A DNA stretch of 64,000 bases, taken from contig CAZQDY010000004.1 in assembly GCA_964592075.1 (NCBI GenBank), positions 16,527 through 80,526 of the forward strand, given 5' to 3'. The position numbers and the translations under genes were made by a program. Source of the stretch: an uncultured Gaiellales bacterium (GTDB lineage Bacteria > Actinomycetota > Thermoleophilia > RBG-16-64-13). The notes beneath the pieces are model-generated. The model did no database searches, was not told the origin of the DNA, and was given only the letters and a program-made list of their open reading frames with translations. Below, one piece after another: positions 10,124 to 57,393 of the stretch (the stretch's first letter is position 1; each line of letters opens with the position of its first letter).

Positions 10124-13100
10124 TCAGCGTCGCGCCGCTCCCGGCTTGAGGATCACGCCTGTCTGCCTCTTGCCGTTGATGACGACCACAAGAGGCGCCG
10201 CCAACCGCAGGTGGCGGACGTACCGGCCTTCCTGAGCCGCGGGTTGCGCGGCCAGCCAATCCCAGTCGAGACTGCCCTCGCCTCCATCGGGATTGACGGT
10301 GAAGTACCCGACCCGGAATGAGGTCAGGTTCTGGAAGAAGTGGCTGCCCTGTGACGGCGTGACCTTGATGTCCTTGAGCCCCGACTCCACTATGACCCGC
10401 GCTCCGGATATCTCCTCCCAGGTCACCGGGATACCCAGCCAGGGGTCGGCGGAGCCCCATCGGCCGAGCCCTATGAGGATGTAGGGAGCTCCTTCGTTCA
10501 CGAGCGCCGCGTTCAGACGGGCGACCTCCTGCGCGATCTCCCGGCTCTTGGCCCTGTCGAACCGAGCACGGTCGACGGCCAGGATGTCCTTGATGTGGTC
10601 CGATCTGCCGTTGCCGAGCACGCTGCTCGAGCCGACCAGGACCCGGTCCGGCTCGATGGCCTCTGTGTCGACCTCGTCGAGCTCGCGCGACAGGACCATG
10701 GGACGTATCTGGATGAAGCCGAAATCCGTGGGTCGTTCCGGCGACCGGGAGAGCTCGACTGCGAACTCTATCTCCACCTCCGTGTTCATGCCCCAGCGGC
10801 CGAGCCCCATCAACCGCTCGAGAGCGGCGGCCAAGGGCAGGGAGCGCTGCTTCAGGATAGGCGCGAACGTCACCAGTCGGACGCCGGACCGGGAGACGCC
10901 GTCGTAGACCGCGTCGTTCTCCGGCGAATAGGTGGAGGCCACCACCGCAAGGGTGCCGTCTGCCTCGGCGTCCTCGAGCGGATAGTGCCGCTCGAGGACC
11001 TCATCGTTCCTGCCGTCGAGATCCAGGGCGATGAAGTCGCGCTGCGAGTGGGCGAGCATGTCCTTGACGGTGGAGAAGTGCATCAGGTGCTGAGGGTGCT
11101 TGGGGCTGAAGGAGAGCGAGGTCCCTCCATCCACGACCATGCGCCCTAACCCCAGCGCCACGGCGGCCACGCCGTCCTCGGCCGCGGACGGCGGGGACGG
11201 GTAGTAGTTGTGGGACCTCCCCACCCCGGCGAAATCGGGGTAGAAGCGGGTGCCGTGATGAGCGCCGACCATCCGCTGGATGATCACCGCCATCCTCTCC
11301 TCCTCGAGGCGGTAAGGCGTGACCTTGAAACAGTTCTTGGCGTAGGTCATGAACGTCGAGGCGTAGACCTTCTTCACGGCGCGGATCAACTGGTAGAGCC
11401 GCACGGCGCCATGCTGATGGTTGTTGGGCAGCAGGTAGGTCTCGTACACACCGGCCAGCGGCTGATACTGCGAATCCTCCAACAGGCTCGATGACCGCAC
11501 GGCCAACGGATAATGGACCAGGTCCAGGTAGGCGGCCAGTCTCCGCTCGACGTCCTCCGGGAAGTCCGCGGCGAGGAAGCGCTTCATGACCTCGGCATCA
11601 TCCGCGCTCTCGAGGGCAAAGCCGCGCAGACCGTTCTCATGGAGGAAGCGATCGAAGATCTCAGTGGTAAGCACCACAGAGGGAGGCACCGTGATCAGCA
11701 TGCCCGGGAACTCCTCGACCACGCTGAAGTCTCGGAGGAGATGCCGAACGAAGGCAAGGGCGCGGGCCTTGCCGCCCAGCGAACCATCGCCGATGCGGGC
11801 GAAGCTGTTGTCGGGATCGAAGGTGGTCGGGTCGAAATCACTCACCGATTCGCGGGTCTGTTCGCGCCGGTAGGTGTTGATCTCCTGGATGAGGTACCGC
11901 CTCCGGCTCTCGGGGGTCTCGCCCTCGGCAGGGGCGCCAAGTCGGAGATGGTGGGCCAGGTGGAACTCGGCACGGGCCTTCAGCCAGCGTGACAGATGGT
12001 TGTGTTCGGCGTGGTAGGTGATCGCCTCGGCCGGGACGGTGCGCAGCATCTCAAGGAGGGTCTTGAGATCGGTCGCCCGTCCTACCACGGTACCGTCGGG
12101 GAGCCGGAAGATGAAGTCGCCGAAGAAGAACCAGTCGACTATGAACCGGCGCAGGTCGTCGAGAAGCGTCGGAGACCCCTTGAGGAGGAACTCGGCCCCC
12201 GCCTCTCTGGCTACACTCTCGCTCTCAGCCCGGCTGGATTGCAGGAGCACCGGTATGTCGGGCCATCTCTCCCGGATCCGGCGGGCGAACTCCGCTCCCG
12301 CCTGCAGATCCAGAGAGCCCTCTCGGGGGAACGACATGTCGGAGATCACCCCGAGCACGTTCTCCTGGTAGGCGGCGAAGTAGTCCCAAGCCTCCTCGTA
12401 GCTGGTGCAGAGCAGGATCTTGGGGCGGGCCCTCATGGCGAGGATCCTGTGCGCCACGTTGCCGGTCCCGGCGATGAGCCTTTGGATGTGGTCGATAGTC
12501 TCGGTATAGATGATGGGGAGGAATGACGAGTAGTAGCGGATGTTGTCCTCGATGAGGAGGACCACCTGCACTCCCGCTACGCCCGCGTCGTAGGCCACGT
12601 TCAGCTTGTCCTCGGCGTATTTGGTGATGGCGAGGAGGATGCGAGGATCGCCCTGCCACAAGAAGATGCGATCCAACTGGGACACGTCGTGGCGGGCCGT
12701 GAACTCCGCCAGCTCGCCACCATCGAAGGCCACCACCACCACCGGGACGTCCAGGCCCGCCTCCTTGACCTTCCGGGCCAATCCGACCGCGTCCATGTCG
12801 CCCAGGTTGATGGCCGACACGATCAGGTCGAACCGGCCCTCGGAGGCTGCGAGGGCCAAGGCCTCCGCCCCGGACGATACGTGAGTGATACCCGTGGTGT
12901 GGTGGAGGTGCAGGTCGAGGAACTCGCCCAGGATGAGCTCGCTCAGCAGGCCGTCTTCCTGGAGGATGAAGGTGTCGTACGTGCTCGACGCCAGGATGAT
13001 GTTCTCGACCCTGCGGGCCATGAGGTGCTGGAAATCATAGGTATGGGTCCATTCCAGCGTCTTCTGTGGCGGTACATCCGGCAAGGTCCCTCCCGGGCGG

Positions 13101-13138
13101 AAGGGCCGGCTGGCTCGCCCGCCGGCCCTCGAGGTCAC
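10124..13138 (-). CDS. large regulatory protein: two atypical CheY-like receiver domains fused to a PEP-utilizing-enzyme N-terminal ATP-grasp (PpsA/PPDK N-terminal) domain plus a ~190-aa C-terminal region of unknown function
   Basis: PPDK_N-type motifs LGGKARALAFV...VPPSVVLTTEIFDRFL, AVRSSSLLEDSQYQPLAGVYETYL, IIQRMVG...FIQIRPM. First receiver lacks the phospho-acceptor Asp (DLIVSAINLGDMDA). No PEP-utilizer mobile His domain is recognisable. GTG start lies 12 nt downstream of the gdhA stop. Confidence 0.65.
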   Translation of the reverse strand: MTSRAGGRASRPFRPGGTLPDVPPQKTLEWTHTYDFQHLMARRVENIILASSTYDTFILQEDGLLSELILGEFLDLHLHHTTGITHVSSGAEALALAASEGRFDLIVSAINLGDMDAVGLARKVKEAGLDVPVVVVAFDGGELAEFTARHDVSQLDRIFLWQGDPRILLAITKYAEDKLNVAYDAGVAGVQVVLLIEDNIRYYSSFLPIIYTETIDHIQRLIAGTGNVAHRILAMRARPKILLCTSYEEAWDYFAAYQENVLGVISDMSFPREGSLDLQAGAEFARRIRERWPDIPVLLQSSRAESESVAREAGAEFLLKGSPTLLDDLRRFIVDWFFFGDFIFRLPDGTVVGRATDLKTLLEMLRTVPAEAITYHAEHNHLSRWLKARAEFHLAHHLRLGAPAEGETPESRRRYLIQEINTYRREQTRESVSDFDPTTFDPDNSFARIGDGSLGGKARALAFVRHLLRDFSVVEEFPGMLITVPPSVVLTTEIFDRFLHENGLRGFALESADDAEVMKRFLAADFPEDVERRLAAYLDLVHYPLAVRSSSLLEDSQYQPLAGVYETYLLPNNHQHGAVRLYQLIRAVKKVYASTFMTYAKNCFKVTPYRLEEERMAVIIQRMVGAHHGTRFYPDFAGVGRSHNYYPSPPSAAEDGVAAVALGLGRMVVDGGTSLSFSPKHPQHLMHFSTVKDMLAHSQRDFIALDLDGRNDEVLERHYPLEDAEADGTLAVVASTYSPENDAVYDGVSRSGVRLVTFAPILKQRSLPLAAALERLMGLGRWGMNTEVEIEFAVELSRSPERPTDFGFIQIRPMVLSRELDEVDTEAIEPDRVLVGSSSVLGNGRSDHIKDILAVDRARFDRAKSREIAQEVARLNAALVNEGAPYILIGLGRWGSADPWLGIPVTWEEISGARVIVESGLKDIKVTPSQGSHFFQNLTSFRVGYFTVNPDGGEGSLDWDWLAAQPAAQEGRYVRHLRLAAPLVVVINGKRQTGVILKPGAARR

Positions 13139-13150
13139 AGTAGGCGTGAG

Positions 13151-15723: not shown

Positions 15724-16008
15724 ATGCCGGCAGTTCCGGATAACGAGGAGAGCAGGGCGAGCTGCGTTTGCGCCGCCTGCCCTTCGAAGCCTAAGGACGA
15801 CATGGTGTTCTACTGCGTGACGGGCAAGAGCCCGGCCGGGGTCGAGCGTGGATTCTGTGCCTGCAGCTGGTGCCCGGTCTGGAGCTGCTACGGACTCGCC
15901 GGGAGCTTCTACTGCGATGAAGGCCCGGTCCCCGACGACGGCCCGGTCCCCGATAACGAGGCGGTCCCCGACGACGGGGCGGCCGGTGAGCAAGACCTGA
16001 CCGAGTAG
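15724..16008 (+). CDS. small cysteine-rich DUF2769-like protein
   Basis: Pattern CVCAACPS...FYCVTGKS...CACSWCPV...YGL..FYC matches DUF2769 spacing as I recall it. C-terminal PVPDD/PVPDN/AVPDD tripartite repeat. Stop is 3 nt before the flavodiiron gene start. Confidence 0.55.
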   Translation: MPAVPDNEESRASCVCAACPSKPKDDMVFYCVTGKSPAGVERGFCACSWCPVWSCYGLAGSFYCDEGPVPDDGPVPDNEAVPDDGAAGEQDLTE

Positions 16009-17229: not shown

Positions 17230-17835
17230 GTGGCGATGACCGTTCTGGGTCTGGCCGGCAGCCCCCGCAGAGGCGGCAACACCGAGACCCTTCTAGACTG
17301 GTGCCTTGCGGGGGCGCGCGCTCAGGGCGCTGTAGTGGTGAAGTTCAGCCTGTGTTCCCTGGATCTCCATGGGTGCCAAGCCTGCGACCGGTGCTGGAAG
17401 GACGGCAAGTGCATCGTCAAGGACGACATGCAGATGCTTTATCCTCACCTACGCAAGGCCGACTCCATCGTGCTGGCGGCGCCCACCTTCTTCCAAGGGA
17501 TGCCGGCGGTGCCCAAGATGATGGTCGACCGCTGCCAGTGTTTCTGGGCCCTGAAGTACGTTCTGCATCAGTCGCTTGCGGAGCCGGGGAGGCCGGAGAG
17601 GCTGGGAGCCTTCCTCAGTTGCTCCGCCACCAAGACGACGCACGCCTTCGATGGAAGCCTCACTATCGTGAAAAGCCTGTGGCACGTGCTGGATGTCACA
17701 CCGGCCGGCGAGTTGCTCTACGCGGGCGTGGACGGCAAGGGCGAGATAACGGAACAGCCCGGGGCGCAAGTGGCGGCGGAGACCATCGGCCGCCGTCTGG
17801 CGCGGGAACGCGAGGTCGAAAGGAAGGACACGTGA
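17230..17835 (+). CDS. iron-sulfur flavoprotein (Isf) / NADPH-dependent FMN reductase family
   Basis: Flavodoxin-like N-terminus VLGLAGSPRRGGNTETL. Compact Cys motif CQACDRCWKDGKC (C-x2-C-x2-C-x5-C), typical of Isf proteins. Confidence 0.7.
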   Translation: MAMTVLGLAGSPRRGGNTETLLDWCLAGARAQGAVVVKFSLCSLDLHGCQACDRCWKDGKCIVKDDMQMLYPHLRKADSIVLAAPTFFQGMPAVPKMMVDRCQCFWALKYVLHQSLAEPGRPERLGAFLSCSATKTTHAFDGSLTIVKSLWHVLDVTPAGELLYAGVDGKGEITEQPGAQVAAETIGRRLAREREVERKDT

Positions 17836-18035
17836 GCGACGAAGTCAAGACCTGCATAAGCTGCGGCAAGCCGCTCGCCGACCGCGTGGAGGAGGAGGAG
17901 CGGACCGGCACGGGTGGAAGTCTCTCCACGGGCGAGTGCAGCACCTACAGGGTGTGGTTCTGCGTCAACAGCGAGTGCGTGATGTTCAACACCGACATCT
18001 ATAAGGAGTCGATTGCCGATCGCTCGGACCGGTGA
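17832..18035 (+). CDS. small Zn-ribbon-like protein (67 aa), GTG start overlapping the Isf stop (GTGA)
   Basis: Absent as a separate entry in the ORF track; it is the tail of a 244-aa nonsense ORF. RBS AGGAAGGA sits 4 nt upstream of GTG. Cys pattern TCISCGKP...ECSTYRVWFCVNSEC. Confidence 0.35.
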   Translation: MSDEVKTCISCGKPLADRVEEEERTGTGGSLSTGECSTYRVWFCVNSECVMFNTDIYKESIADRSDR

Positions 18036-18325: not shown

Positions 18326-18376
18326 CGGCGATCCGACGATGCGTATCGCTGGTGGGATGAAAGGAGGTGATGGTCG

Positions 18377-19453
18377 ATGAGCGACATACCCAGGCTGACC
18401 ACGCTGTCGCACGGCTCCGGCTGAGCGTGCAAGTTGGGCCCCAAGGACTTGGGGCAGGTCATGGACATGGTGCCGTGGGTGGACGACCCCGCGGTGCTGG
18501 TGGGCGCCTCCACGCTCGACGACGCGGCCATCTACCGCCTGAGTGACGACCTTGCTCTGGTGCAGACCGTGGACTTCTTCACGCCCGTGGTGGACGATCC
18601 CTACGATTTCGGGCGCATAGCCGCCGCGAACGCTCTGTCCGATGTGTACGCGATGGGGGGACGGCCCTTGACGGCCCTCAACATCGTGGGGTTTCCCTCC
18701 GGTGTGCTGCCGCTGGAGTACCTGGGCCGGATACTCCAAGGGGGGGCGGAGACGGCCCGGCTGGCCGGCGCCACCGTGGTGGGGGGGCATACCATCGACG
18801 ACCCGGAGCTGAAGTACGGGATGGCCGTGACCGGGGTGATCAAGCCCGGCGAGGAGTGGACCAACGCGGCCGCGGTCCCCGGGGACGTCCTCGTGCTGAC
18901 CAAACCGATCGGCACCGGCGTCATCGCCACGGCCATCAAACGGGAGAGCGCGTCAGAGGAGGCCGTCGCTGCCGCGACCGCTTCCATGGCGGCGATCAAC
19001 CGGGACGCCGCGGAGGCGGCCCGCGTGCATGGCCTCCGGGCGGTCACCGACGTCACCGGATTCGGGCTTCTCGGTCATCTCACCGAACTGTGCCGGGCGA
19101 GTGGGGTGGGGGCCGAGATATGGTTCGACGCCCTGCCTCTGCTGCCGGACGCCGCCGGCCTCGCTCGCGAGGGGATCGTGCCGGGCGGCACCAGACGCAA
19201 TCTCGAACACGTGTCGGACCGGACGGTCTTCGATCCCGATTTGGAGCCCTGGCAGCGGCTGCTCTCGGCCGATGCCCAGACCTCGGGCGGGTTGCTGCTG
19301 TGCGTGGCGGCCGGGAAGGTCTCAGACGTGGTGCGGTCGCTCGAGGACCGGGGGACACCCGCGGCCGCGGTGGTGGGCGTGATCCGCGAGCCCGGGGAGA
19401 GTCTGATCGGCGTGCGCGCTACGTCGCCTGGCCGAGGAGTATGGACAGGCTGA
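18377..19453 (+). CDS. selD: selenide, water dikinase (selenophosphate synthetase) with selenocysteine encoded by an in-frame TGA at 18422-18424
   Basis: The ORF track begins at TTG 18434. Reading upstream in the same frame gives ATG 18377 (RBS AAGGAGGTGA at 18361-18370), then MSDIPRLTTLSHGSG-TGA-ACKLGPKDLG. This aligns with the SelD N-terminal motif (E. coli ...LTQYSHGAGCGCKISPK) with Sec at the position of the catalytic Cys/Sec. A hairpin follows the TGA. Confidence 0.85.
18438..18455 (+). promoter_or_regulatory. candidate SECIS-like hairpin GCCCCAA-GGAC-TTGGGGC, 13 nt downstream of the selD TGA
   Basis: 7-bp stem with a 4-nt loop read directly from the sequence. Its position matches where bacterial SECIS elements sit. 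Confidence 0.45.
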
Positions 19454-19832
19454 CCCGGGTCCCGCCTCCCGGAGCGCGAGAGAAGCTGACCTCGTCCATG
19501 AGGGCGACCATGAGGGGCAGCCCCAATCCCCGATTGGTCAGTTTTCCGCGGGGCGGGCACGGTGGGCGGAAGAAGCCGGTGTCGGTCACGAAGAAGGTCA
19601 GGCGCTCGGACTGAAGACGAGCTTCGATCTCGAGGAGCGCTTCGTCACCGCAGGCGTGCTCCATGGCGTTGGCCGCCGCCTCCGACACCGCCACCTTGAG
19701 ATCGAATGTCTTCTCGACCTGCAATCCGGCTTCGCGCGCGACCTGCTGCACGAAACGGCGCACCTGCTCCAACTCCGCCGTCTCCGGCCTGACTCTCATC
19801 ACCCAGCTGCAGTCCCGGCGCGCGACCGTCAT
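19419..19832 (-). CDS. anti-sigma factor serine kinase (RsbW/SpoIIAB-like HATPase)
   Basis: DLKVAVSEAAANAMEHA...GLGLPLMVALMDEV. Start ATG overlaps the stop of the upstream STAS gene. The ORF track extends 147 codons upstream, which is not credible. The 3' end overlaps the selD 3' end by 35 nt (convergent). Confidence 0.7.
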   Translation of the reverse strand: MTVARRDCSWVMRVRPETAELEQVRRFVQQVAREAGLQVEKTFDLKVAVSEAAANAMEHACGDEALLEIEARLQSERLTFFVTDTGFFRPPCPPRGKLTNRGLGLPLMVALMDEVSFSRAPGGGTRVSLSILLGQAT

Positions 19833-20215
19833 CGCGCTCGTTCTTCCGACATCAGAGCGGCCTCCGCCGCCAACCGGTCGTCGAACGACCGGAAGCTCGG
19901 GTCCACGAACAAACCCACCAGTTCGAGAAGCCGGCGCACGTTGTTGTTGGGTCCGATCACGCCCAACCAACCGGTGTCTCGCAACCGCCGGGTCCCCGAC
20001 AGCAGGACCGATATGCCCCCGCTGTCCAGGTAGGCGACCTTTGACAGGTCGATCAACACGATAGGACGGCCTTGGTCGACTATCTCGTCGAGCGCTGCCC
20101 CAACGCCTCCGCAGGTGCTGTGGTCTATGTCCCCCTCTATATCGAGTAGAGGTGTCTCCGCGAGACTGGTCACTCTCAAGTTCATAGGCACCGAGTCGGG
20201 TGTATTGATGTCCAA
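19829..20215 (-). CDS. anti-sigma factor antagonist (STAS domain, RsbV/SpoIIAA-like)
   Basis: STAS fold signature LDIEGDIDHSTCGGVGAALDEIV...LIDLSKVAYLDSGGISVLL with a phosphorylatable Ser in DSGG. Confidence 0.75.
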   Translation of the reverse strand: MDINTPDSVPMNLRVTSLAETPLLDIEGDIDHSTCGGVGAALDEIVDQGRPIVLIDLSKVAYLDSGGISVLLSGTRRLRDTGWLGVIGPNNNVRRLLELVGLFVDPSFRSFDDRLAAEAALMSEERAR

Positions 20216-37865: not shown

Positions 37866-40025
37866 ATGCGCTCGCGGTGGTCGGAGGAAGAAGCGGCCGG
37901 GTTCGTGGCGCGCTACGGTCCCGAGTGGGGCGAGGCGCTCGCGCTTCGCACGTACTCCACACGGTTGGTGGGGGAGGACCCGGACCTCGTCCTGCACGGC
38001 GGGGGCAACTCGTCTGTCAAGGTGACCACCACCAACCTGTTCGGCGACGAGGTCTCGGTGGTCTACGTCAAGGCCTCCGGCGCCGACATGGCGACCATCG
38101 AGCCGGCGGAGCATCCTGGGCTTGACCTGGACTATCTACGGCGGCTGCGCGTGCTGCGAGAGCTGGGCGACGCGGATATGGTGGACCAGTTGCGAACCCA
38201 TCTGCTGCGCGCCGACAGCCCCACGCCCTCCATCGAGGCCTTGGTGCACGCCTTTCTGCCGGGGGTCTACATCGATCACACACATGCCGACGCGGTGATC
38301 GCTCTCACGAATCGCGAGCATGGCCTCTCCGTGGCCAGGGAGGCCTTGGGCGAGGACGTGATAGTGCTGCCCTACTTGACTCCCGGCTTCAAGCTTGCCC
38401 TGGCAGCGGCCCGGGCCCTCGACGACCACCCCGACGCTTGGGGAATGGTGTGGGCTCATCACGGGATCGTGACCTGGGGAGAGACCGCCCACGAGTCGTA
38501 CGAGATGATGATCCGTCTGGTATCGCGTGCCGAGCAGTGGATCGAGTCCAACAGGCCCCAAGCCGGGGGCCCGCCGGCGACCGGCCGGATCGTAGCTGCG
38601 GTCGCGTCTGAAGCGGAGGGGAGGCTCGCATCGCGTGCCGCCCAGGTGGCACCGATGCTACGTGGTCTCCTGGCGGAGCGGACCGGCGACTGTGACCGTC
38701 CGTACCGGCGTGTGGTGCTTCAGTGGTGCACGGGCCCCGAGATCCTGGCGGCGCTGGCCGCGCCCGCCGCTCGGGAGACCTTTGTCAGCCCGGTGCTTAC
38801 CACCGACCACCTGATCCGCGCCAAGGCCGAGCCGCTGTGGGTGGACGAGCTACCTCCGGGCGACCCGGACGCCGCCCGCGCCCAGCTGCAGGCGGCTGTG
38901 CAGGGGTATTGCGAACGGTACGAGTCTTACCTGGAGAGGCACGCTTCCGCTATGCCGGCCGGCGTGCAGCCGTTCGACCCTCAGCCGCGGGTGGTCATGA
39001 TCCAGGGCCTGGGGGTGTTCTGCGCGGGTCCGGATCTGCGCGACGCTCGGATCGCTCGGGACATCACCTTGCACACCATGGAGGTAAAGGCCGCGATCGC
39101 GGCCGGAGGCGCGAAGTACCACGGTCTTCCCGAGGAAGAGCTGTTCCGCATGGAGTACCGGACGCTACAGCACGCCAAGCTGCGACGGGCCGTGGCAGGT
39201 GGGGCAGAGGGCGCCCGGGCGCCGCTGCGCGGGCATGTGGCCGTGGTCACAGGGGCGGCCGGGGCCATCGGCACGGGCATCACCGAAGGGTTGCTGAATG
39301 CGGGCTGTTTGGTGGCGGCCACCGATCTGCCGGGCGGGCCTCTCACCACTCTAGTCCGGGAGATGGAGGCCCGTTTCCCGGAGAGGATCATCGGGCTGCC
39401 GCTGGACGTCACCGACCCCGAATCTGTCGCCGCCGCCTTCGACCAGCTGGCGAGGGCCTGGGGCGGCGTCGATCTGGTGATCCCCAACGCGGGGGTCGCC
39501 GCGGTGGCTCCGCTCACCGGACTGACCCTCGACCGCTACCGAAAGCTCGAACAGGTGAACGTGGAGGGAACGCTTCTGGTGCTGGCCGAGGCGGCCCGGT
39601 TGTTCAGGCGCCAGGCCACCGGAGGAGACATCGTGCTGGTGTCGACCAAGAACGTCTTCTCGCCGGGCGCCAACTTCGGAGCCTACAGCTCCACCAAGGC
39701 CGCGGCGCACCAGTTGGCCCGCGTCGCGAGCCTGGAGCTGGCGGCGGATGACGTGCGGGTCAACATGGTCGCTCCGGATGCCGTGTTCGCCTGCGGCGCC
39801 TGTCGCTCAGGGTTGTGGACCGAGGTCGGTCCCGACCGCATGAAGGCCCGGGGCCTGGACGAGGCGGGCCTGGAGGCCTACTACCAGAACCGTAATCTGC
39901 TCAAGGTCCAGGTCACGGCGGCCCACGTGGCGAGAGCGGTGCTCTTCTTCGCCACCAGGCAGACGCCCACCACCGGGGCCACCATCCCCGTGGACGGCGG
40001 TCTGCCGGATTCCACGCCCCGGTAG
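37866..40025 (+). CDS. bifunctional class II aldolase/adducin-domain + short-chain dehydrogenase protein (YuxG / rhamnulose-1-phosphate aldolase-SDR-like)
   Basis: N-terminal class II aldolase-like region ([13 protein letters not shown]). C-terminal SDR ([22 protein letters not shown]). 719 aa. Confidence 0.75.
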
Positions 40026-40069
40026 GCTGGACGCCGAGTCGCGTGCTGAGCCGGAAAGGAGGAGGACGT

Positions 40070-41134
40070 ATGTCTCACCCGGCCGGGCCCATCGATCTGA
40101 GAAGCGATACCGTCACCAAGCCGAGCGAAGCCATGCGCCGGGCTATGGCCGCGGCGCCCGTGGGCGACGACATCTACCGGGAGGACCCCACCGTCGAACT
40201 GCTCCAGAAGAGGGTGGCCGAGCTGTTGGGCAAGGAAGCGGCTCTCTTCGTCCCCTCCGGGACCATGGGTAACCAACTGTGCCTGCGCACGCTCACGCGC
40301 CCCGGCGACGAGGTCGTAGTGCATGAGGATGCGCATGTGATGCTCTACGAAGCGGGCTCCGCGGCCGCCCTGTCCGGGCTGCAGCTCCGTCCCGTGCCTG
40401 GAGTGCTCGGGGTCATCACGCCTGAGGAGGTGGAGCGGGTCATCAGGCCCGTGGCCGAGCACTTCCCCCGCACCACGGTGGTGGAGATGGAGAACACGCA
40501 CAACCGTTGCGGAGGCACCATATGGCCTCTGGAGCAGATGCAGGCCGTCGCGACCCTTGCTCGTTCGCGGGGAATGGCCGTGCATCTGGACGGAGCCCGT
40601 CTCTGGAACGCGCACGTGGCCACCGGTGTTGCTCTGGCCGCCTACGCGGCTACAGCCGACTCGGTCTCGGTCTGCTTCTCCAAGGGATTGGGCGCCCCTG
40701 TGGGTTCGGCCCTTGCAGGCACCGGCGACTTCGTCGAAGAGGCGCGCCGGAACCGCAGACGCTACGGCGGCGCGATGAGGCAGGCCGGGATCATCGCGGC
40801 GGGCGCGCTCTATGCCCTCGAGCACAACCTGGAGCGGCTCGCGGAGGATCACGAGAAGGCCGCGGTATTGGCCGGCTACCTCGAGCAGGTTCCCGGTATG
40901 GAGCTGGTCCATCCGGTGCAGACCAACATCCTCATAGCCTCGGTGGGCGGGCTGGGGGTGGGGGCGGAGCAGGTGGTGGCGGCCCTGAAGGAGGCGGGGG
41001 TCCTATGCGGGGTGGCGGCGGTCGACCGGGTCCGCTTCGTCACCCATCTGGATGTGAGCATGGAGGCCGTCAAGGCGGCCGGCGAGATCGTCGTGCCGGC
41101 TATCTCCGGGCTGGGAAGGCCGGTCGCGACATGA
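40070..41134 (+). CDS. ltaE: low-specificity L-threonine aldolase
   Basis: [39 protein letters not shown]...SGTMGNQ. RBS GGAAAGGAGGAGG. Confidence 0.85.
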
Positions 41135-41724
41135 CGGGGGGCGGTGAGTCGGGAGCACGGCAGGCGGGCGCGGCCGGGCCTGGGCCTGCGGCCGATCCTC
41201 GAGCGCCGTATGTGCGTCTGGCGGTGGCGGCTCTCATCGCTCGGGAGCACGAGGGCCCTCCGCTCGCGGCCGGCGGGGAGGCCGCCAAGCCGTCCGGGAC
41301 CGTCAGATGGCTCCTCGTGCATAGGACGGATCCGGTGGATGCCTGGGACCCGCCTGGTGGACGTGCGGAAGCAGGGGAGGATCTGAAGGCCGCCGTCCGG
41401 CGGGAGGCGGCTGAAGAGACCGGGCTCGCGGTGGAGGTGGCCGGTCCCTGCTACGCGTACCTGACGTTCCACAAGGGTGAGCGCCTACTGGCCGTCAGCA
41501 TGGCCTGCAGACTGCTCTGCGACCCGGACGACCTGACTCTGGAGGCGGGTCTCACGGACCGGCGTTGGGCGTCGGCTTCGGAATGGGAGGAACTGGCCCG
41601 CTCTGGACGTAGTACTTGGAATGAGCACGATGTGCGGAGGGCGCTGCGCATGGCCCAGGCCCTCTGGGACGTGGAGGCGGAGTGGACCGAGAACAGGCCC
41701 TGGGACTGGTCAAGGGGCGGGTGA
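41131..41724 (+). CDS. NUDIX hydrolase
   Basis: Nudix box [27 protein letters not shown] overlaps the ltaE stop (ATGA). Appears only as the tail of a longer nonsense ORF in the track. Confidence 0.7.
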
Positions 41725-46113: not shown

Positions 46114-48162
46114 CTACGATGTCACCAACAGCAGGAGGTTGTAGAGCAGTTGCGCGCATTCTCCTCTCGAGGCCGGGGCGAAGAAGTCGTAGGAGGGGCC
46201 CACGCCGGCGAGCCCGTCCAGCAGGCCGGCATAGGCGAGCTTGCGGGCATTCAGGTAGTGCTCGTCGGGGTAGAACTGGCTCGCGCCGAAGCTGGGCGTG
46301 AACGAAGCCGGAGGCTCCGACAGGCCGGCCGCCCGCGCGACCATCGTGACCAGTTGCTGGCGGGTGATGTGGTCGTTGGGCGCGAAGGTGGTCGCGGTCT
46401 TGCCGGCGGTGAGGCCGTTGGCCTTGGCCACTGCTATGTAGTCGTGCGGGTAGATGTCGGCGAGATCGTCCGCGCCACAGTCGGTGAAGGGCTTGCTGCT
46501 ATCGGACCAGTCGGCCTCAGAGACCGGCAGTCCCATGACCCCGACGATCATCTTGGCGAAGTGCTTGCGGAACACCGGGTTGTCCGGACCGAAAGTGCCA
46601 TCGGTGTAGCCGGAGATGATGCCCTCGTCGGCGAGCGCGACTATGGCGGTGGCATAGGGGGTCACGCCGGGGATGACGTCGGTGAAGGAGCTGCCGCCCC
46701 CGCCGCCTCCGGGCGCGGTGGAGAAGCTCCACGTGATCGGCGCTCCGGCGAGCGTCTGACCGTCGGCGCCCTCAACGGCTGTGGTGAGGGTCACCTCGTA
46801 GGTGGCGCCGGCCTCCAGGTCGGCCGCTGGGTCAAGGGTGGCCGTGCGGGTGCCGGAGCTGTAGGCGACGGTCGCCGGAAGCGGGCTTCCGCCTGACTTC
46901 TGGACGTAGAAGGTGGCGCCCGTGAGGGTGGAGGCGTCCATGTTCTTGTCGAAGGTGGCCGCTATCGTCTGGCCCACCGGCACCGAAGTCGCCCCGGCGG
47001 CCGGGACCTTGGTGATCACGGAGGGCGCCTCCCCGGCAGTGGTGAAGCTCCATTCCACGGCAGAGGCGAGCGGCGTCCCCGCCCCGCTTTCGACAGCGGT
47101 GGTGAGCCTGACCTCGTAGGTCTCTCCCGGTTCCAGGCCGGCCACGGGGTCAAGGGTGGCCGTGCGGGTGGCGGCACTGTAGTCCACCACGGCCGGCAGC
47201 GGAGTCCCGCCCGACTTCTTGATGTAGAAGGTGGCGCTGGTGAGCGTGGCCGGGTCCATGTCTGTGTCGAAGGTGGCTGCGATCACTTGGCCCACAGGCA
47301 CCCCGGCCGTCCCGTTCGCCGGGATCTTGGTGGTGACGTGGGGCGTGGAGGCGGCGGTGGTGAAGGTCCAGGTGACCGGGGCCTGCATGAACAAGCCGTT
47401 CTCCGCTTTCACTGCCGTAGTGACGGTGACTATGTAGGTCGTGTTCTCATCGAGGGGGTTCTGGGGGGTGAGGGTCACCGTGCGCTTGTCGGAGCTCTTG
47501 GCCAGCGTGGCCGTCTTGAGGCCGCCCCCAGACTCCTGGAGAAAGAACGAGCTGCTGTTGACGGTGGACCAGTCCATGTCGTGGTCGAAGACGACCTGCA
47601 CCTGCTCGTCCACCGGCACGTCCGTTGCTCCGGTAGCCGGTCCATGCATCTTCACCTGCGGCCAGGTGATAGTGGTGAACGACCATGACCCCTCGTTGAA
47701 GAGATGGAGACCGGCGGCCTCGCTCACGATGGGGTTGACCAGATACGCCACATAGGTCGTTCCAGGCTCCAGATTGGCGACCGGGTTGAGCGTCGCCCTG
47801 TTGATGCCGAGCACAGCGTTGTAGGTGTAGGAGGTCGCCGCCGCCACTTTGAGGGTGGCCCCTTGCTTCTTCAGGTGGAAGGTGCCGTCGTTGATGGTGA
47901 TCGCCTCGAGTTTCAGGTTGAAGGAGACTCTCACGTTTGCATCGAGCGGGACCTCTGTTGCGTTCTTTGCCGGCTCCCAGCTCGAGGCTAGGAGATACTT
48001 CCCGATCGGAGGTTCGAAGCCGGGGGGCAGAAGCCCGGGGTCCAGGGCCTGAGCCTGGTCCACGCCGCCCTGGTGGGGGGCGGTGCACACAAGACCCAGG
48101 GCTAAGGCAAACAGCAGGATCAAGGGCAACAGGGTTCTGCGTTGGAACAGGCGCTTCTTCAT
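46114..48162 (-). CDS. S-layer-type secreted protein: signal peptide, tandem Ig-like (Big_5/SbsA-like) domains, three C-terminal SLH domains
   Basis: Signal peptide MKKRLFQRRTLLPLILLFALALG with GGAGG RBS (start 48162). ~88-aa tandem repeats (ATFDTDMDPATLTSATFYIKKSGG... and ATFDKNMDASTLTGATFYVQKSGG...). C-terminal SLH motifs (FTDV...YTDGTFGPDNP..., ITRQQLVTMVARAAGL). The ORF track's 196 upstream codons are not credible. Confidence 0.8.
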   Translation of the reverse strand: MKKRLFQRRTLLPLILLFALALGLVCTAPHQGGVDQAQALDPGLLPPGFEPPIGKYLLASSWEPAKNATEVPLDANVRVSFNLKLEAITINDGTFHLKKQGATLKVAAATSYTYNAVLGINRATLNPVANLEPGTTYVAYLVNPIVSEAAGLHLFNEGSWSFTTITWPQVKMHGPATGATDVPVDEQVQVVFDHDMDWSTVNSSSFFLQESGGGLKTATLAKSSDKRTVTLTPQNPLDENTTYIVTVTTAVKAENGLFMQAPVTWTFTTAASTPHVTTKIPANGTAGVPVGQVIAATFDTDMDPATLTSATFYIKKSGGTPLPAVVDYSAATRTATLDPVAGLEPGETYEVRLTTAVESGAGTPLASAVEWSFTTAGEAPSVITKVPAAGATSVPVGQTIAATFDKNMDASTLTGATFYVQKSGGSPLPATVAYSSGTRTATLDPAADLEAGATYEVTLTTAVEGADGQTLAGAPITWSFSTAPGGGGGGSSFTDVIPGVTPYATAIVALADEGIISGYTDGTFGPDNPVFRKHFAKMIVGVMGLPVSEADWSDSSKPFTDCGADDLADIYPHDYIAVAKANGLTAGKTATTFAPNDHITRQQLVTMVARAAGLSEPPASFTPSFGASQFYPDEHYLNARKLAYAGLLDGLAGVGPSYDFFAPASRGECAQLLYNLLLLVTS
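46800..47450. repeat. intragenic tandem duplication (~318-nt period) encoding repeated Ig-like domains of the S-layer protein
   Basis: Near-identical peptides on both strands at 318-nt offset (antisense ORFs 46913-47119 and 47231-47437 are near-copies). Confidence 0.4.
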
Positions 48163-48294
48163 GGCCCCCTCCTCATCGCATGCGAACCGGGAGCGATCTG
48201 CTCCCTTCATGAATTCGAGTATAGGCTTGTTGGACGGCGCGTCAATGGCCGTTTGCCCGTTTGGTGCCTTGGTGTCGGGCGTGAGGTGGCCTTC

Positions 48295-48303
48295 TGCTAG
48301 AAT
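48295..48303 (+). promoter_or_regulatory. extended -10-like TGCTAGAAT 10 nt upstream of the metG ATG
   Basis: Same 9-mer as upstream of the lsrF-like gene. Its proximity to the ATG suggests a very short or absent leader. Confidence 0.35.
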
Positions 48304-48312
48304 AGCCCGGCC

Positions 48313-50004
48313 ATGGGGCGCTTCTACATCACCACCCCTATCTACTACGTCAACGACGTGCCGCACATCGGGCACGCCTACACCACCGCCGCCGCGGACG
48401 TGGCGGCGAGGTTCCACCGCCAACTGGGCGACGATGTGTTCTTCCTCACCGGCACCGATGAGCACGGCACGAAGGTGGAGCAGGCGGCGGCCGCCCGGGG
48501 GCTGACGCCCAAAGAGCATGTGGACGAGGTGGTGGTCAAGTTCAGGGAAGTGGCGGCGAAAGTGGGGGCCAGCAACGACTTCTTCATCCGCACCACCGAC
48601 TCCGAGCACGAGCGGTACGTGCAGCAGTTCGTGCAGCGCTGCTACGATGCCGGCGATATCTACAAGAAGGCGTACTCGGGCCTCTACTGCCGGGCGTGCG
48701 AGGCCTACTACACCGAGGAGAACCTGGTAGACGGGCTCTGCCCCGACCACGGCACCGCCCCGGTGCTCATGGAAGAGGAGAACTACTTCTTCCGTCTATC
48801 CGCCTTCCAGGATCGTCTGGCGGCCCATTACCGGGACAACCAAGATTTCGTGCGCCCCAAGCACCGCTACAACGAAGCGCTGTCGTTCATCGAGCAGGGG
48901 CTGGACGATATCTCTATCTCCCGTTCCACGTTGAAGTGGGGCATCGGCGTACCATGGGACGAGACCCAGGTCATCTACGTGTGGGTGGATGCCCTCATCA
49001 ACTACATGAGCGCGCTGACCTACGCTCCCGGCCAAGATCTGTTCTCGCGTTTCTGGCCGGCGAGCTACCACCTCATGGCCCAGGACATCCTCAAGTTCCA
49101 CGGCGTGATCTGGCCGGCGCTGTTGATGTCGGCGGGGTATGAGCTGCCGGAGCATCTGTTCATCCACGGCTACCTGAAGCTCGGTGGAGAGAAGATGTCG
49201 AAGACGCGCGGGAATGTGATGGACCCCTTCCCGCTCATCGAGCAGTATGGGGCCGACGCGTTCAGGTTGTACTGCCTGCGTGAGGTGAGTTTCGGGCAGG
49301 ACGGCATGGTGAGCGAGGAGGGCTTCAAGGCCCGCTACAACAGTGAGCTGGCCAACGAACTCGGCAACCTGGTATCGCGGACCGCTTCCATGATCGGCAA
49401 GTACCGGGGCGGCGCGGTGCCCGCGCCGCCCCCCGGCTATGCCGACCCGCCGGAGTGTACCCACGCGCACCCAGGTTCACCGCTCGCCGTGGAGGCAACC
49501 GCGGCCTGTGCCGCGGTCCGCACCCAGCTCGAAGAGCTGGACCTGACGGCGGCCCTGGAGACCATCTGGACCTTCGTGCGCCGCCTGAATCGGTATGTCG
49601 AGGAGCAGGCGCCCTGGAAGCTGGCCAAGGAAGCGGCCGCCGAGGAGGCCGGGGCGGCCCCAGCGGCCCCTGGCGACGGCGGGACCGCCGGAGCGCCGGG
49701 CTTGGTCGCCGACAAGCCCGGCGCCGTCGGCCCTGGGCGGGGCGCCCTCCCGGGGCCGGCTACCGTCGCGCTAGACGCCACCCTGTGGGACCTGGCTGAG
49801 GGGCTGCGCCTTCTGTCGGTATTGCTCCACCCGTTCATGCCGCAGACGGCGATGGCCATCAGGGAGCGGCTGGGGTTGACCTCTGCCGGTTCTGCCTCCG
49901 ACACTGCGACCGGTCCGAGTTGGGACGAAGCGCGATGGGGACTGCTGGCGCCCGGTCTGAGGGTCACCGCGGGGGGCGCTCTGTTCCCCCGGATCGAGGA
50001 CTGA
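48313..50004 (+). CDS. metG: methionyl-tRNA synthetase (short form, with a low-complexity insertion in the C-terminal region)
   Basis: HIGH motif PYIGHAYT region (TTPIYYVNDVPHIGHAYT). KMSKS motif (GEKMSKTRGN). Ala/Gly/Pro-rich insertion near the C-terminus. Confidence 0.9.
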   Translation: MGRFYITTPIYYVNDVPHIGHAYTTAAADVAARFHRQLGDDVFFLTGTDEHGTKVEQAAAARGLTPKEHVDEVVVKFREVAAKVGASNDFFIRTTDSEHERYVQQFVQRCYDAGDIYKKAYSGLYCRACEAYYTEENLVDGLCPDHGTAPVLMEEENYFFRLSAFQDRLAAHYRDNQDFVRPKHRYNEALSFIEQGLDDISISRSTLKWGIGVPWDETQVIYVWVDALINYMSALTYAPGQDLFSRFWPASYHLMAQDILKFHGVIWPALLMSAGYELPEHLFIHGYLKLGGEKMSKTRGNVMDPFPLIEQYGADAFRLYCLREVSFGQDGMVSEEGFKARYNSELANELGNLVSRTASMIGKYRGGAVPAPPPGYADPPECTHAHPGSPLAVEATAACAAVRTQLEELDLTAALETIWTFVRRLNRYVEEQAPWKLAKEAAAEEAGAAPAAPGDGGTAGAPGLVADKPGAVGPGRGALPGPATVALDATLWDLAEGLRLLSVLLHPFMPQTAMAIRERLGLTSAGSASDTATGPSWDEARWGLLAPGLRVTAGGALFPRIED

Positions 50005-57279: not shown

Positions 57280-57351
57280 TGGGGCGTGGCCAAGTGGTAA
57301 GGCAACGGGTTTTGGTCCCGTCATTCGTAGGTTCGAATCCTGCCGCCCCAG
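57280..57351 (+). tRNA. tRNA-Gln (anticodon TTG)
   Basis: Cloverleaf folded by hand: acceptor TGGGGCG/CGCCCCA with U1-A72 pair, D-arm GCC...GGC, anticodon stem ACGGG/CCCGT with loop TTTTGGT, T-arm GTAGG-TTCGAAT-CCTGC. CCA not encoded. Confidence 0.8.
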
Positions 57352-57393
57352 CTTTCTCCTCATCTCCATGGCTCCACTGGGGTACGTATCAGG

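Follow-up and report, generated by a model that had tools for sequence, protein, structure and literature searches.

SelD (selenide, water dikinase) and FdhA constitute the two most widespread families of bacterial selenoproteins, with SelD ranking second, and the selenocysteine (Sec) residue of SelD is located in its N-terminal selenium-binding loop (PMC5029168, PMC13188914, PMC1794560). Interconversion of Sec and Cys within selenoprotein families is well documented, Actinobacteria included (PMC1794560, PMC5029168, PMC13188914), and Sec-type SelDs have been listed in Clostridia, Deltaproteobacteria, and Symbiobacterium, with Sec and Cys forms alternating (PMC1794560). The present analysis concerns a selD gene at positions 18377-19453 (+ strand) of a 64-kb stretch of DNA (hereafter, the window; 66% G+C) from an uncultured Gaiellales bacterium, the reading frame of which is interrupted at codon 16 by a TGA. 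Both the existence of Sec-type SelD and the switch between Sec and Cys at its catalytic residue are textbook knowledge, and the gene in the window very probably belongs to this type; it is predicted to encode a complete SelD (358 codons plus a stop) whose catalytic residue 16 is selenocysteine.

Gene model and catalytic loop of selD

The frame of selD opens at an ATG (18377-18379, +) preceded by the Shine-Dalgarno sequence AAAGGAGGTGA (18360-18370, +), within which GGAGG occupies positions 18363-18367 and leaves 9 nt between its end and the ATG. This ATG is the sole possible start 5' of the Sec codon because an in-frame stop is present at 18368-18370. Its column is invariant in the alignment of this gene with its relatives (alignment A1), the selD genes of relatives have either ATG or GTG as start codon at the equivalent position, and the Shine-Dalgarno motif AGG(A/G)GGTGA is common to the Sec-type members of the alignment. 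From the ATG, the translation reads MSDIPRLTTLSHGSG up to the TGA of codon 16 (18422-18424, +) and continues directly beyond it as ACKLGPKDLGQVMDM, which includes the segment ACKLGPK; the frame then remains open until the genuine stop codon, also a TGA, at 19451-19453 (+). An earlier note on this DNA had proposed this upstream extension through the TGA to a strongly preceded ATG, having recognized that the mechanical list of open reading frames (ORFs) begins selD at TTG 18434; both the ORF list, in which the product has 339 aa, and the translation bear this out. The false starts that ORF finding and gene calling give for selD, namely TTG 18434, ATG 18461, and ATG 18467, lie within 18434-18469 (+). 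A scan for promoters and terminators around selD returned nothing convincing.

The recoded protein was scored against family profiles with Cys substituted for the in-frame stop. It matched TIGR00476 (selD) with 397.2 bits against a cut-off of 125, beginning at profile position 1, and NF002098 with 376.4 bits against a cut-off of 299; between them, the two models span residues 4/6 to 312/336 with profile starts of 1/5. That both profiles are matched from their N-terminal end onward indicates that the models expect the residues lying upstream of the TGA. The AIRS N- and C-terminal domains (PF00586 and PF02769; PurM-like) are precomputed for the identical public protein, P0001.

Among solved structures, the best match was E. 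coli SelD (3U0O; E = 2.6e-79), which aligned end to end over residues 5-335. In the HMMER alignment, residues 5-19 of the query were paired with E. coli SelD IRLTQYSHGAGCGCK, such that the TGA falls opposite Cys17, C18 opposite Cys19, and K19 opposite Lys20 (SHGSG-U-ACK compared to SHGAG-C17-GC19K20). The earlier note had matched the recoded N-terminus to the conserved SelD motif with the TGA at the catalytic Cys/Sec position, and it had quoted the E. coli motif correctly. Further motifs aligned with 3U0O included DDAA(I/V)Y, (T/V)DFF, NA(L/I)SD(V/I)(Y/F)AMGG, and TDVTGFGLLGH, and the N-terminal glycine-rich loop motif was seen in 60 of the loci examined. The second-best structural match was the SelD of Aquifex aeolicus (2YYE/2ZOD), in which the catalytic Sec was reportedly replaced by Cys for crystallography. 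Given this homology, catalysis presumably follows the chemistry of E. coli SelD, and the enzyme would produce selenophosphate from selenide and ATP by way of an N-terminal loop comprising Sec16, Cys18, and Lys19.

Conservation of the TGA and of the residues around it

A scan for selD loci with one genome retained per species provided 80 loci. The 15 closest (L005-L019) are from metagenome-assembled genomes (MAGs) labelled Actinomycetota, Actinomycetes, Thermoleophilia, or Gaiellales, and their products are 62-90% identical to that of the window gene, the nearest genome being MAG AS10tlH2TH_230 (90%). Each of the 15 has a TGA at the identical codon, with PRLTTLSHGSG before it and ACK(L/I)(G/S)P after it. 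With more distant SelDs, the codon is either TGA or TGC/TGT. The loci with TGC/TGT are the syntenic orthologues L085 and L086, together with L020, L024-L026, and others.

The window gene and its 15 closest relatives were then treated together as 16 Sec-type genes. In their codon alignment, residues 5-15 (PRLTTLSHGSG) are invariant although 2-5 synonymous codons are in use for each; invariance with synonymous variation is likewise seen at residues 17-19, and conservation at the protein level extends over residues 17-28. The combination of invariant residues with synonymous codon turnover on both sides of the TGA denotes purifying selection acting on protein, and hence a translated region. As judged from this codon turnover, both flanks of the UGA are shown to be translated. 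The earlier note had raised the prospect of homologues that start downstream of the TGA and have no conserved N-terminal segment; instead, that segment is kept upstream of the codon in these genomes.

These observations bear directly on the proposal that the TGA is a real stop, with SelD starting at one of the three downstream codons and the 15 codons upstream being either untranslated or used for a short leader peptide. The public call for the exact sequence does start at ATG 18467 (P0001, 328 aa), and of the 120 nearest public protein clusters listed, 118 are similarly short, covering at most 93% of the full-length query; those that were inspected start at residues equivalent to Met29 or Met31, just past the TGA. 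Moreover, purine-rich AAGGA and GGGG stretches situated in the hairpin described below, at most 13 nt before ATG 18461/18467, could mimic a ribosome-binding site. Nevertheless, a downstream start is highly improbable in view of the protein-level conservation across 16 species of the very residues it would leave untranslated. TTG 18434 is not a conserved start since relatives have CTC, CTG, or ATC in its place, none of which serves them as a start codon. Initiation at Met29 or Met31 would cost the enzyme the segment aligned to the E. coli catalytic loop (Sec/Cys17-Cys19-Lys20), which lies inside TIGR00476 from its first position, and gene calls for the Cys-type orthologues do start at this same ATG and give the full-length protein.

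The hairpin downstream of the UGA and the decoding of codon 16

A SECIS-like hairpin (SECIS, selenocysteine insertion sequence) occupies positions 18438-18455 (+), with its 5' arm GCCCCAA at 18438-18444, a GGAC loop at 18445-18448, and its 3' arm TTGGGGC at 18449-18455. It encodes G-P-K-D-L-G, that is, codons 21-26 together with the first base of codon 27. The stem of 7 bp has a predicted energy of -12.6 kcal/mol and begins 13 nt after the TGA, precisely as the earlier note had located it, and the distance from the UGA to the loop is 20 nt. The consensus for bacterial SECIS (bSECIS) elements calls for a loop of 3-9 nt with G in loop positions 1-2, a stem of 4-16 bp, a UGA-to-loop distance of 16-37 nt, and a minimum free energy of -7.5 kcal/mol or lower (PMC13188914, Fig. 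2). All 16 Sec-type genes conform to the consensus in every respect, with a spacing that is always 20 nt and energies of -10.8 to -13.8 kcal/mol. The constraint is evident at third codon positions: their conservation over codons 21-26 is 0.958 compared to a mean of 0.608 for the gene, which ranks first of 353 six-codon windows. Leu25 is encoded by TTG in 16 of 16 genes, even though TTG accounts for only 97 of the 671 Leu codons in these genes.

Two Cys-type orthologues provide a contrast from within the clade. Full-length homologues P0005 and P0006, 75% and 73% identical to the window protein, are encoded at L085:101-1174 and L086:3001-4065 with TGC in place of the TGA, and both are called from the equivalent ATG. 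The two loci share the selD neighborhood of the Sec-type genes (PspC, selD, HATPase_c_2, STAS, and polysaccharide deacetylase), and a neighbor-joining tree placed them on separate branches within the Sec-type clade. L086 encodes the same G-P-K-D-L by GGT CCG AAA GAC CTC and forms no hairpin (-4.6 kcal/mol); in L085 the hairpin is degraded, with mismatches in its stem. From these alignments, an RNA-level constraint on the hairpin is shown to accompany the TGA and to disappear with TGC. The unbootstrapped tree suggests two independent conversions of Sec to Cys, each followed by decay of the SECIS. The clade constitutes a clean natural experiment in the retention and loss of a SECIS element, in which Sec-type genes with an intact hairpin can be compared to nested Cys-type genes with a decayed one.

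Given the organization of the gene and its hairpin, translation would begin at ATG 18377 and proceed to the UGA at 18422-18424, where the mRNA hairpin at 18438-18455, presenting its GGAC loop 20 nt past the UGA, would act as a bacterial SECIS. It would recruit SelB-GTP-Sec-tRNASec, leading to the insertion of Sec instead of termination. We infer from the sequences both the binding of SelB to the hairpin and the incorporation of selenium at this codon.

Several points weigh against Sec at codon 16 and against the hairpin as its signal. Folded as a single sequence, the hairpin is no better than chance (z = -0.99, with 35 of 200 shuffles folding at least as well). As the DNA is 66% G+C, such a fold is uninformative alone, and the significance of the hairpin comes from the comparative data only. 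No compensatory base-pair changes were found in the stem across the Sec-type alignment, where 98.1% of cells are paired; two of the stem pairs never vary, and three vary only from G-C or A-U to G-U. Because the stem is nearly invariant, this test of covariation is also uninformative. Two pairs are broken in register in L019, the hairpin of which is kept only by a one-base shift of register. The structure of the hairpin is thus predicted from its conservation, the contrast with the Cys-type genes, and its fit to the consensus, not from covariation. With regard to that contrast, the group of Cys-type orthologues within the clade comprises just two genes, and the neighbor-joining tree is without support values. 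Finally, no selA, selB, or tRNA-Sec was found in the 64-kb window with ARAGORN, Rfam, and tblastn using the E. coli SelA and SelB sequences (from NC_000913.3) as queries against the window and all loci; the lone tRNA of the window, identified with both ARAGORN and Rfam, is a tRNA-Gln (57280-57352). Likewise, the 10-kb flanks of L005-L019 contained neither selA nor selB by tblastn, and no tRNAs by ARAGORN. The 15 relatives therefore indicate that this clade keeps selD apart from its other sel genes, and we infer from the maintained TGA and hairpin that selA, selB, and selC reside elsewhere in the genome.

This lack of Sec machinery in the window and in the flanks of relatives would equally suit a second proposal, namely that readthrough of the UGA inserts a standard amino acid (Cys, Trp, or Gly), whether by near-cognate or suppressor decoding or under a reassigned code. 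The conservation of the flanks proves readthrough regardless of which residue is inserted. However, such decoding is again very unlikely. TGA is the commonest stop codon among the long ORFs of the window, terminating 26 of 44, selD itself included, and a genome-wide reassignment is consequently excluded. This codon is also the one at which SelDs are known to alternate between Sec and Cys (PMC13188914), and only genes with the TGA conserve a hairpin that fits the SelB-dependent bSECIS consensus. The remaining proposal treats the TGA either as an error of sequencing or assembly or as an inactivating mutation in a pseudogene. It draws on nothing more than the occurrence of a stop within a conserved gene and is effectively refuted: the same sequence, TGA included, was recovered in four independent metagenome assemblies from different samples (L001-L004), 15 further species have the identical TGA, and the gene is otherwise intact and evolves under purifying selection, with synonymous turnover seen in 134 invariant degenerate codon columns.

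Two further features of selD loci were observed. In eight of the relatives (L006, L008, L010, L012, L013, L015, L016, and L018), the UGA is itself predicted to be paired within a mini-helix of 5 bp spanning nt 1-16 from the TGA. This helix, UGAGC...GCUC(G/A), is formed with a CTC Leu codon and is weak in the window (GTTGG); it may simply follow from the coding sequence, or it may modulate access to the UGA. Elsewhere, selA, and sometimes selB, is found directly beside selD in the distant loci L021, L052, L056, L061, L078, and L084, which are from Eubacteriales, Firmicutes, and Zixibacteria and were the only loci with tblastn matches to SelA or SelB.

The window was also searched for other genes related to selenium and for other recoded TGA codons. 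Pfam annotation of essentially all of its long ORFs detected no ybbB/selU, yqeB/yqeC, fdhA, grdA/B, or prdB, nor any selenium-trait gene besides selD; it identified housekeeping genes, among them the C-terminus of dnaE, the his operon, gdh, gcvP subunits, ftsZ, metG, ksgA, prs, pth, and mfd. A scan for in-frame TGA codons that was based on G+C content at third codon positions (GC3) proved too strict, having missed selD, whereas a relaxed version recovered selD and one other candidate, at 41132-41134. This candidate was rejected, leaving no further Sec-TGA gene in the window by the relaxed scan: the codon is an ordinary stop whose bases are shared, as ATGA, with the start of a NUDIX-box gene that lies downstream in a different frame, and its readthrough signal is an artefact since GC3 is high in the wrong frame. 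The NUDIX-box gene (41131-41640, +) opens at ATG 41131 and overlaps the stop of a beta-eliminating-lyase gene (39896-41134); neighboring frames gave no Pfam match.

Annotation, neighborhood, and comparison with known systems

The immediate consequence of these findings is the correction of a gene model. The public call for this gene is missing both its catalytic loop and its true N-terminus, gene callers routinely cut the first 30 residues, and the annotation of MAGs and metagenomes seems to deprive SelD of its N-terminus systematically. Inferences on function or structure drawn from the truncated entries would accordingly concern a decapitated enzyme. The findings also mark the organism, together with its clade, as a probable user of selenocysteine, and further gene models in these MAGs may be cut short or split at TGA codons. 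The addition to biology is small, as this is an ordinary Sec-type selD in an arrangement well known in bacteria.

The 3' end of selD overlaps, by 35 nt, a convergent pair of genes, one for an RsbW-like anti-sigma kinase (19419-19832, -; HATPase_c_2 by Pfam) and one for a STAS-domain antagonist (19829-20215, -; Pfam). This kinase/STAS neighborhood is conserved in Sec- and Cys-type relatives. Upstream of selD, an ORF of 67 aa with no Pfam family (17832-18035, +) lies between the FMN-reductase and PspC genes, and it is called in the independent assemblies L001 and L004. Further upstream, an ORF of 94 aa belonging to DUF2769 (15724-16008, +) has an O-methyltransferase gene on one side and a flavodiiron-like gene on the other, the latter combining ODP/metallo-beta-lactamase and flavodoxin domains and being followed by the FMN reductase; the order of genes around DUF2769 is the same in L001 and in the Cys-type L086. 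At 10124-13150 (-), a protein of approximately 1000 aa joins an N-terminal segment resembling a response-regulator receiver to PPDK_N (phosphoenolpyruvate-utilizing, ATP-binding), an unusual fusion. Finally, the gene at 46114-48795 (-) encodes a large surface protein with four Big_5 Ig-like domains and two SLH repeats, a composition which suggests an S-layer-anchored envelope protein of an Actinomycetota-like organism.

Compared to E. coli SelD (3U0O), the loop SHG(A/S)G-[C/U]-xCK of the window protein aligns residue for residue, but E. coli encodes its Cys17 by TGC and has no SECIS whereas the window gene has TGA. With respect to the bSECIS elements of E. coli fdhF and fdnG, the hairpin of the window likewise follows the UGA closely within the coding sequence and has an apical loop that opens with GG. 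The fdhF element is approximately 40 nt in length. The window hairpin is shorter, with neither a bulged U nor an extended lower helix being evident, and the pairs outside its 7-bp stem are weak and not conserved.

The hairpin also differs from those of distant Sec-type selD genes. In the clade of the window gene it is compact and nearly invariant (7 bp, GGAC loop, 20-nt spacing), while the distant genes mostly have GGCGCAG-GUN-CUGCGCC positioned further downstream. This latter element was observed approximately 27-46 nt past the TGA in L022, L023, L030, L034, L043, L060, L069, and L076, the hosts of which include Armatimonadota, Chloroflexi, Gemmatimonadota, and others; it encodes the conserved segment LAQVLR, and in many cases a second hairpin precedes it. 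Hence, as far as these alignments reach, the SECIS elements of selD appear to be lineage-specific. A more tentative proposal, and one that we consider doubtful, is that the clade uses a lineage-specific and unusually compact SECIS, consisting of the 18-nt GCCCCAA-GGAC-UUGGGGC placed 13 nt past the UGA and frozen in at least 16 species. Were this so, a SelB with distinct and minimal requirements for RNA recognition would be implied, and Sec-type SelD might maintain the whole Sec-decoding trait, with repeated escapes from Sec to Cys (L085 and L086) followed by decay of the SECIS.

In its principal features, the window gene resembles the Sec-containing SelDs described previously from bacteria, such as that of Aquifex aeolicus: it belongs to the same family, has Sec predicted at the same position, and carries a hairpin in its coding sequence just past the UGA. 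The alternation of Sec and Cys among its relatives likewise parallels that recorded for the known Sec-type enzymes (PMC1794560), with the difference that the host in this case is an uncultured Actinomycetota/Thermoleophilia-like clade.

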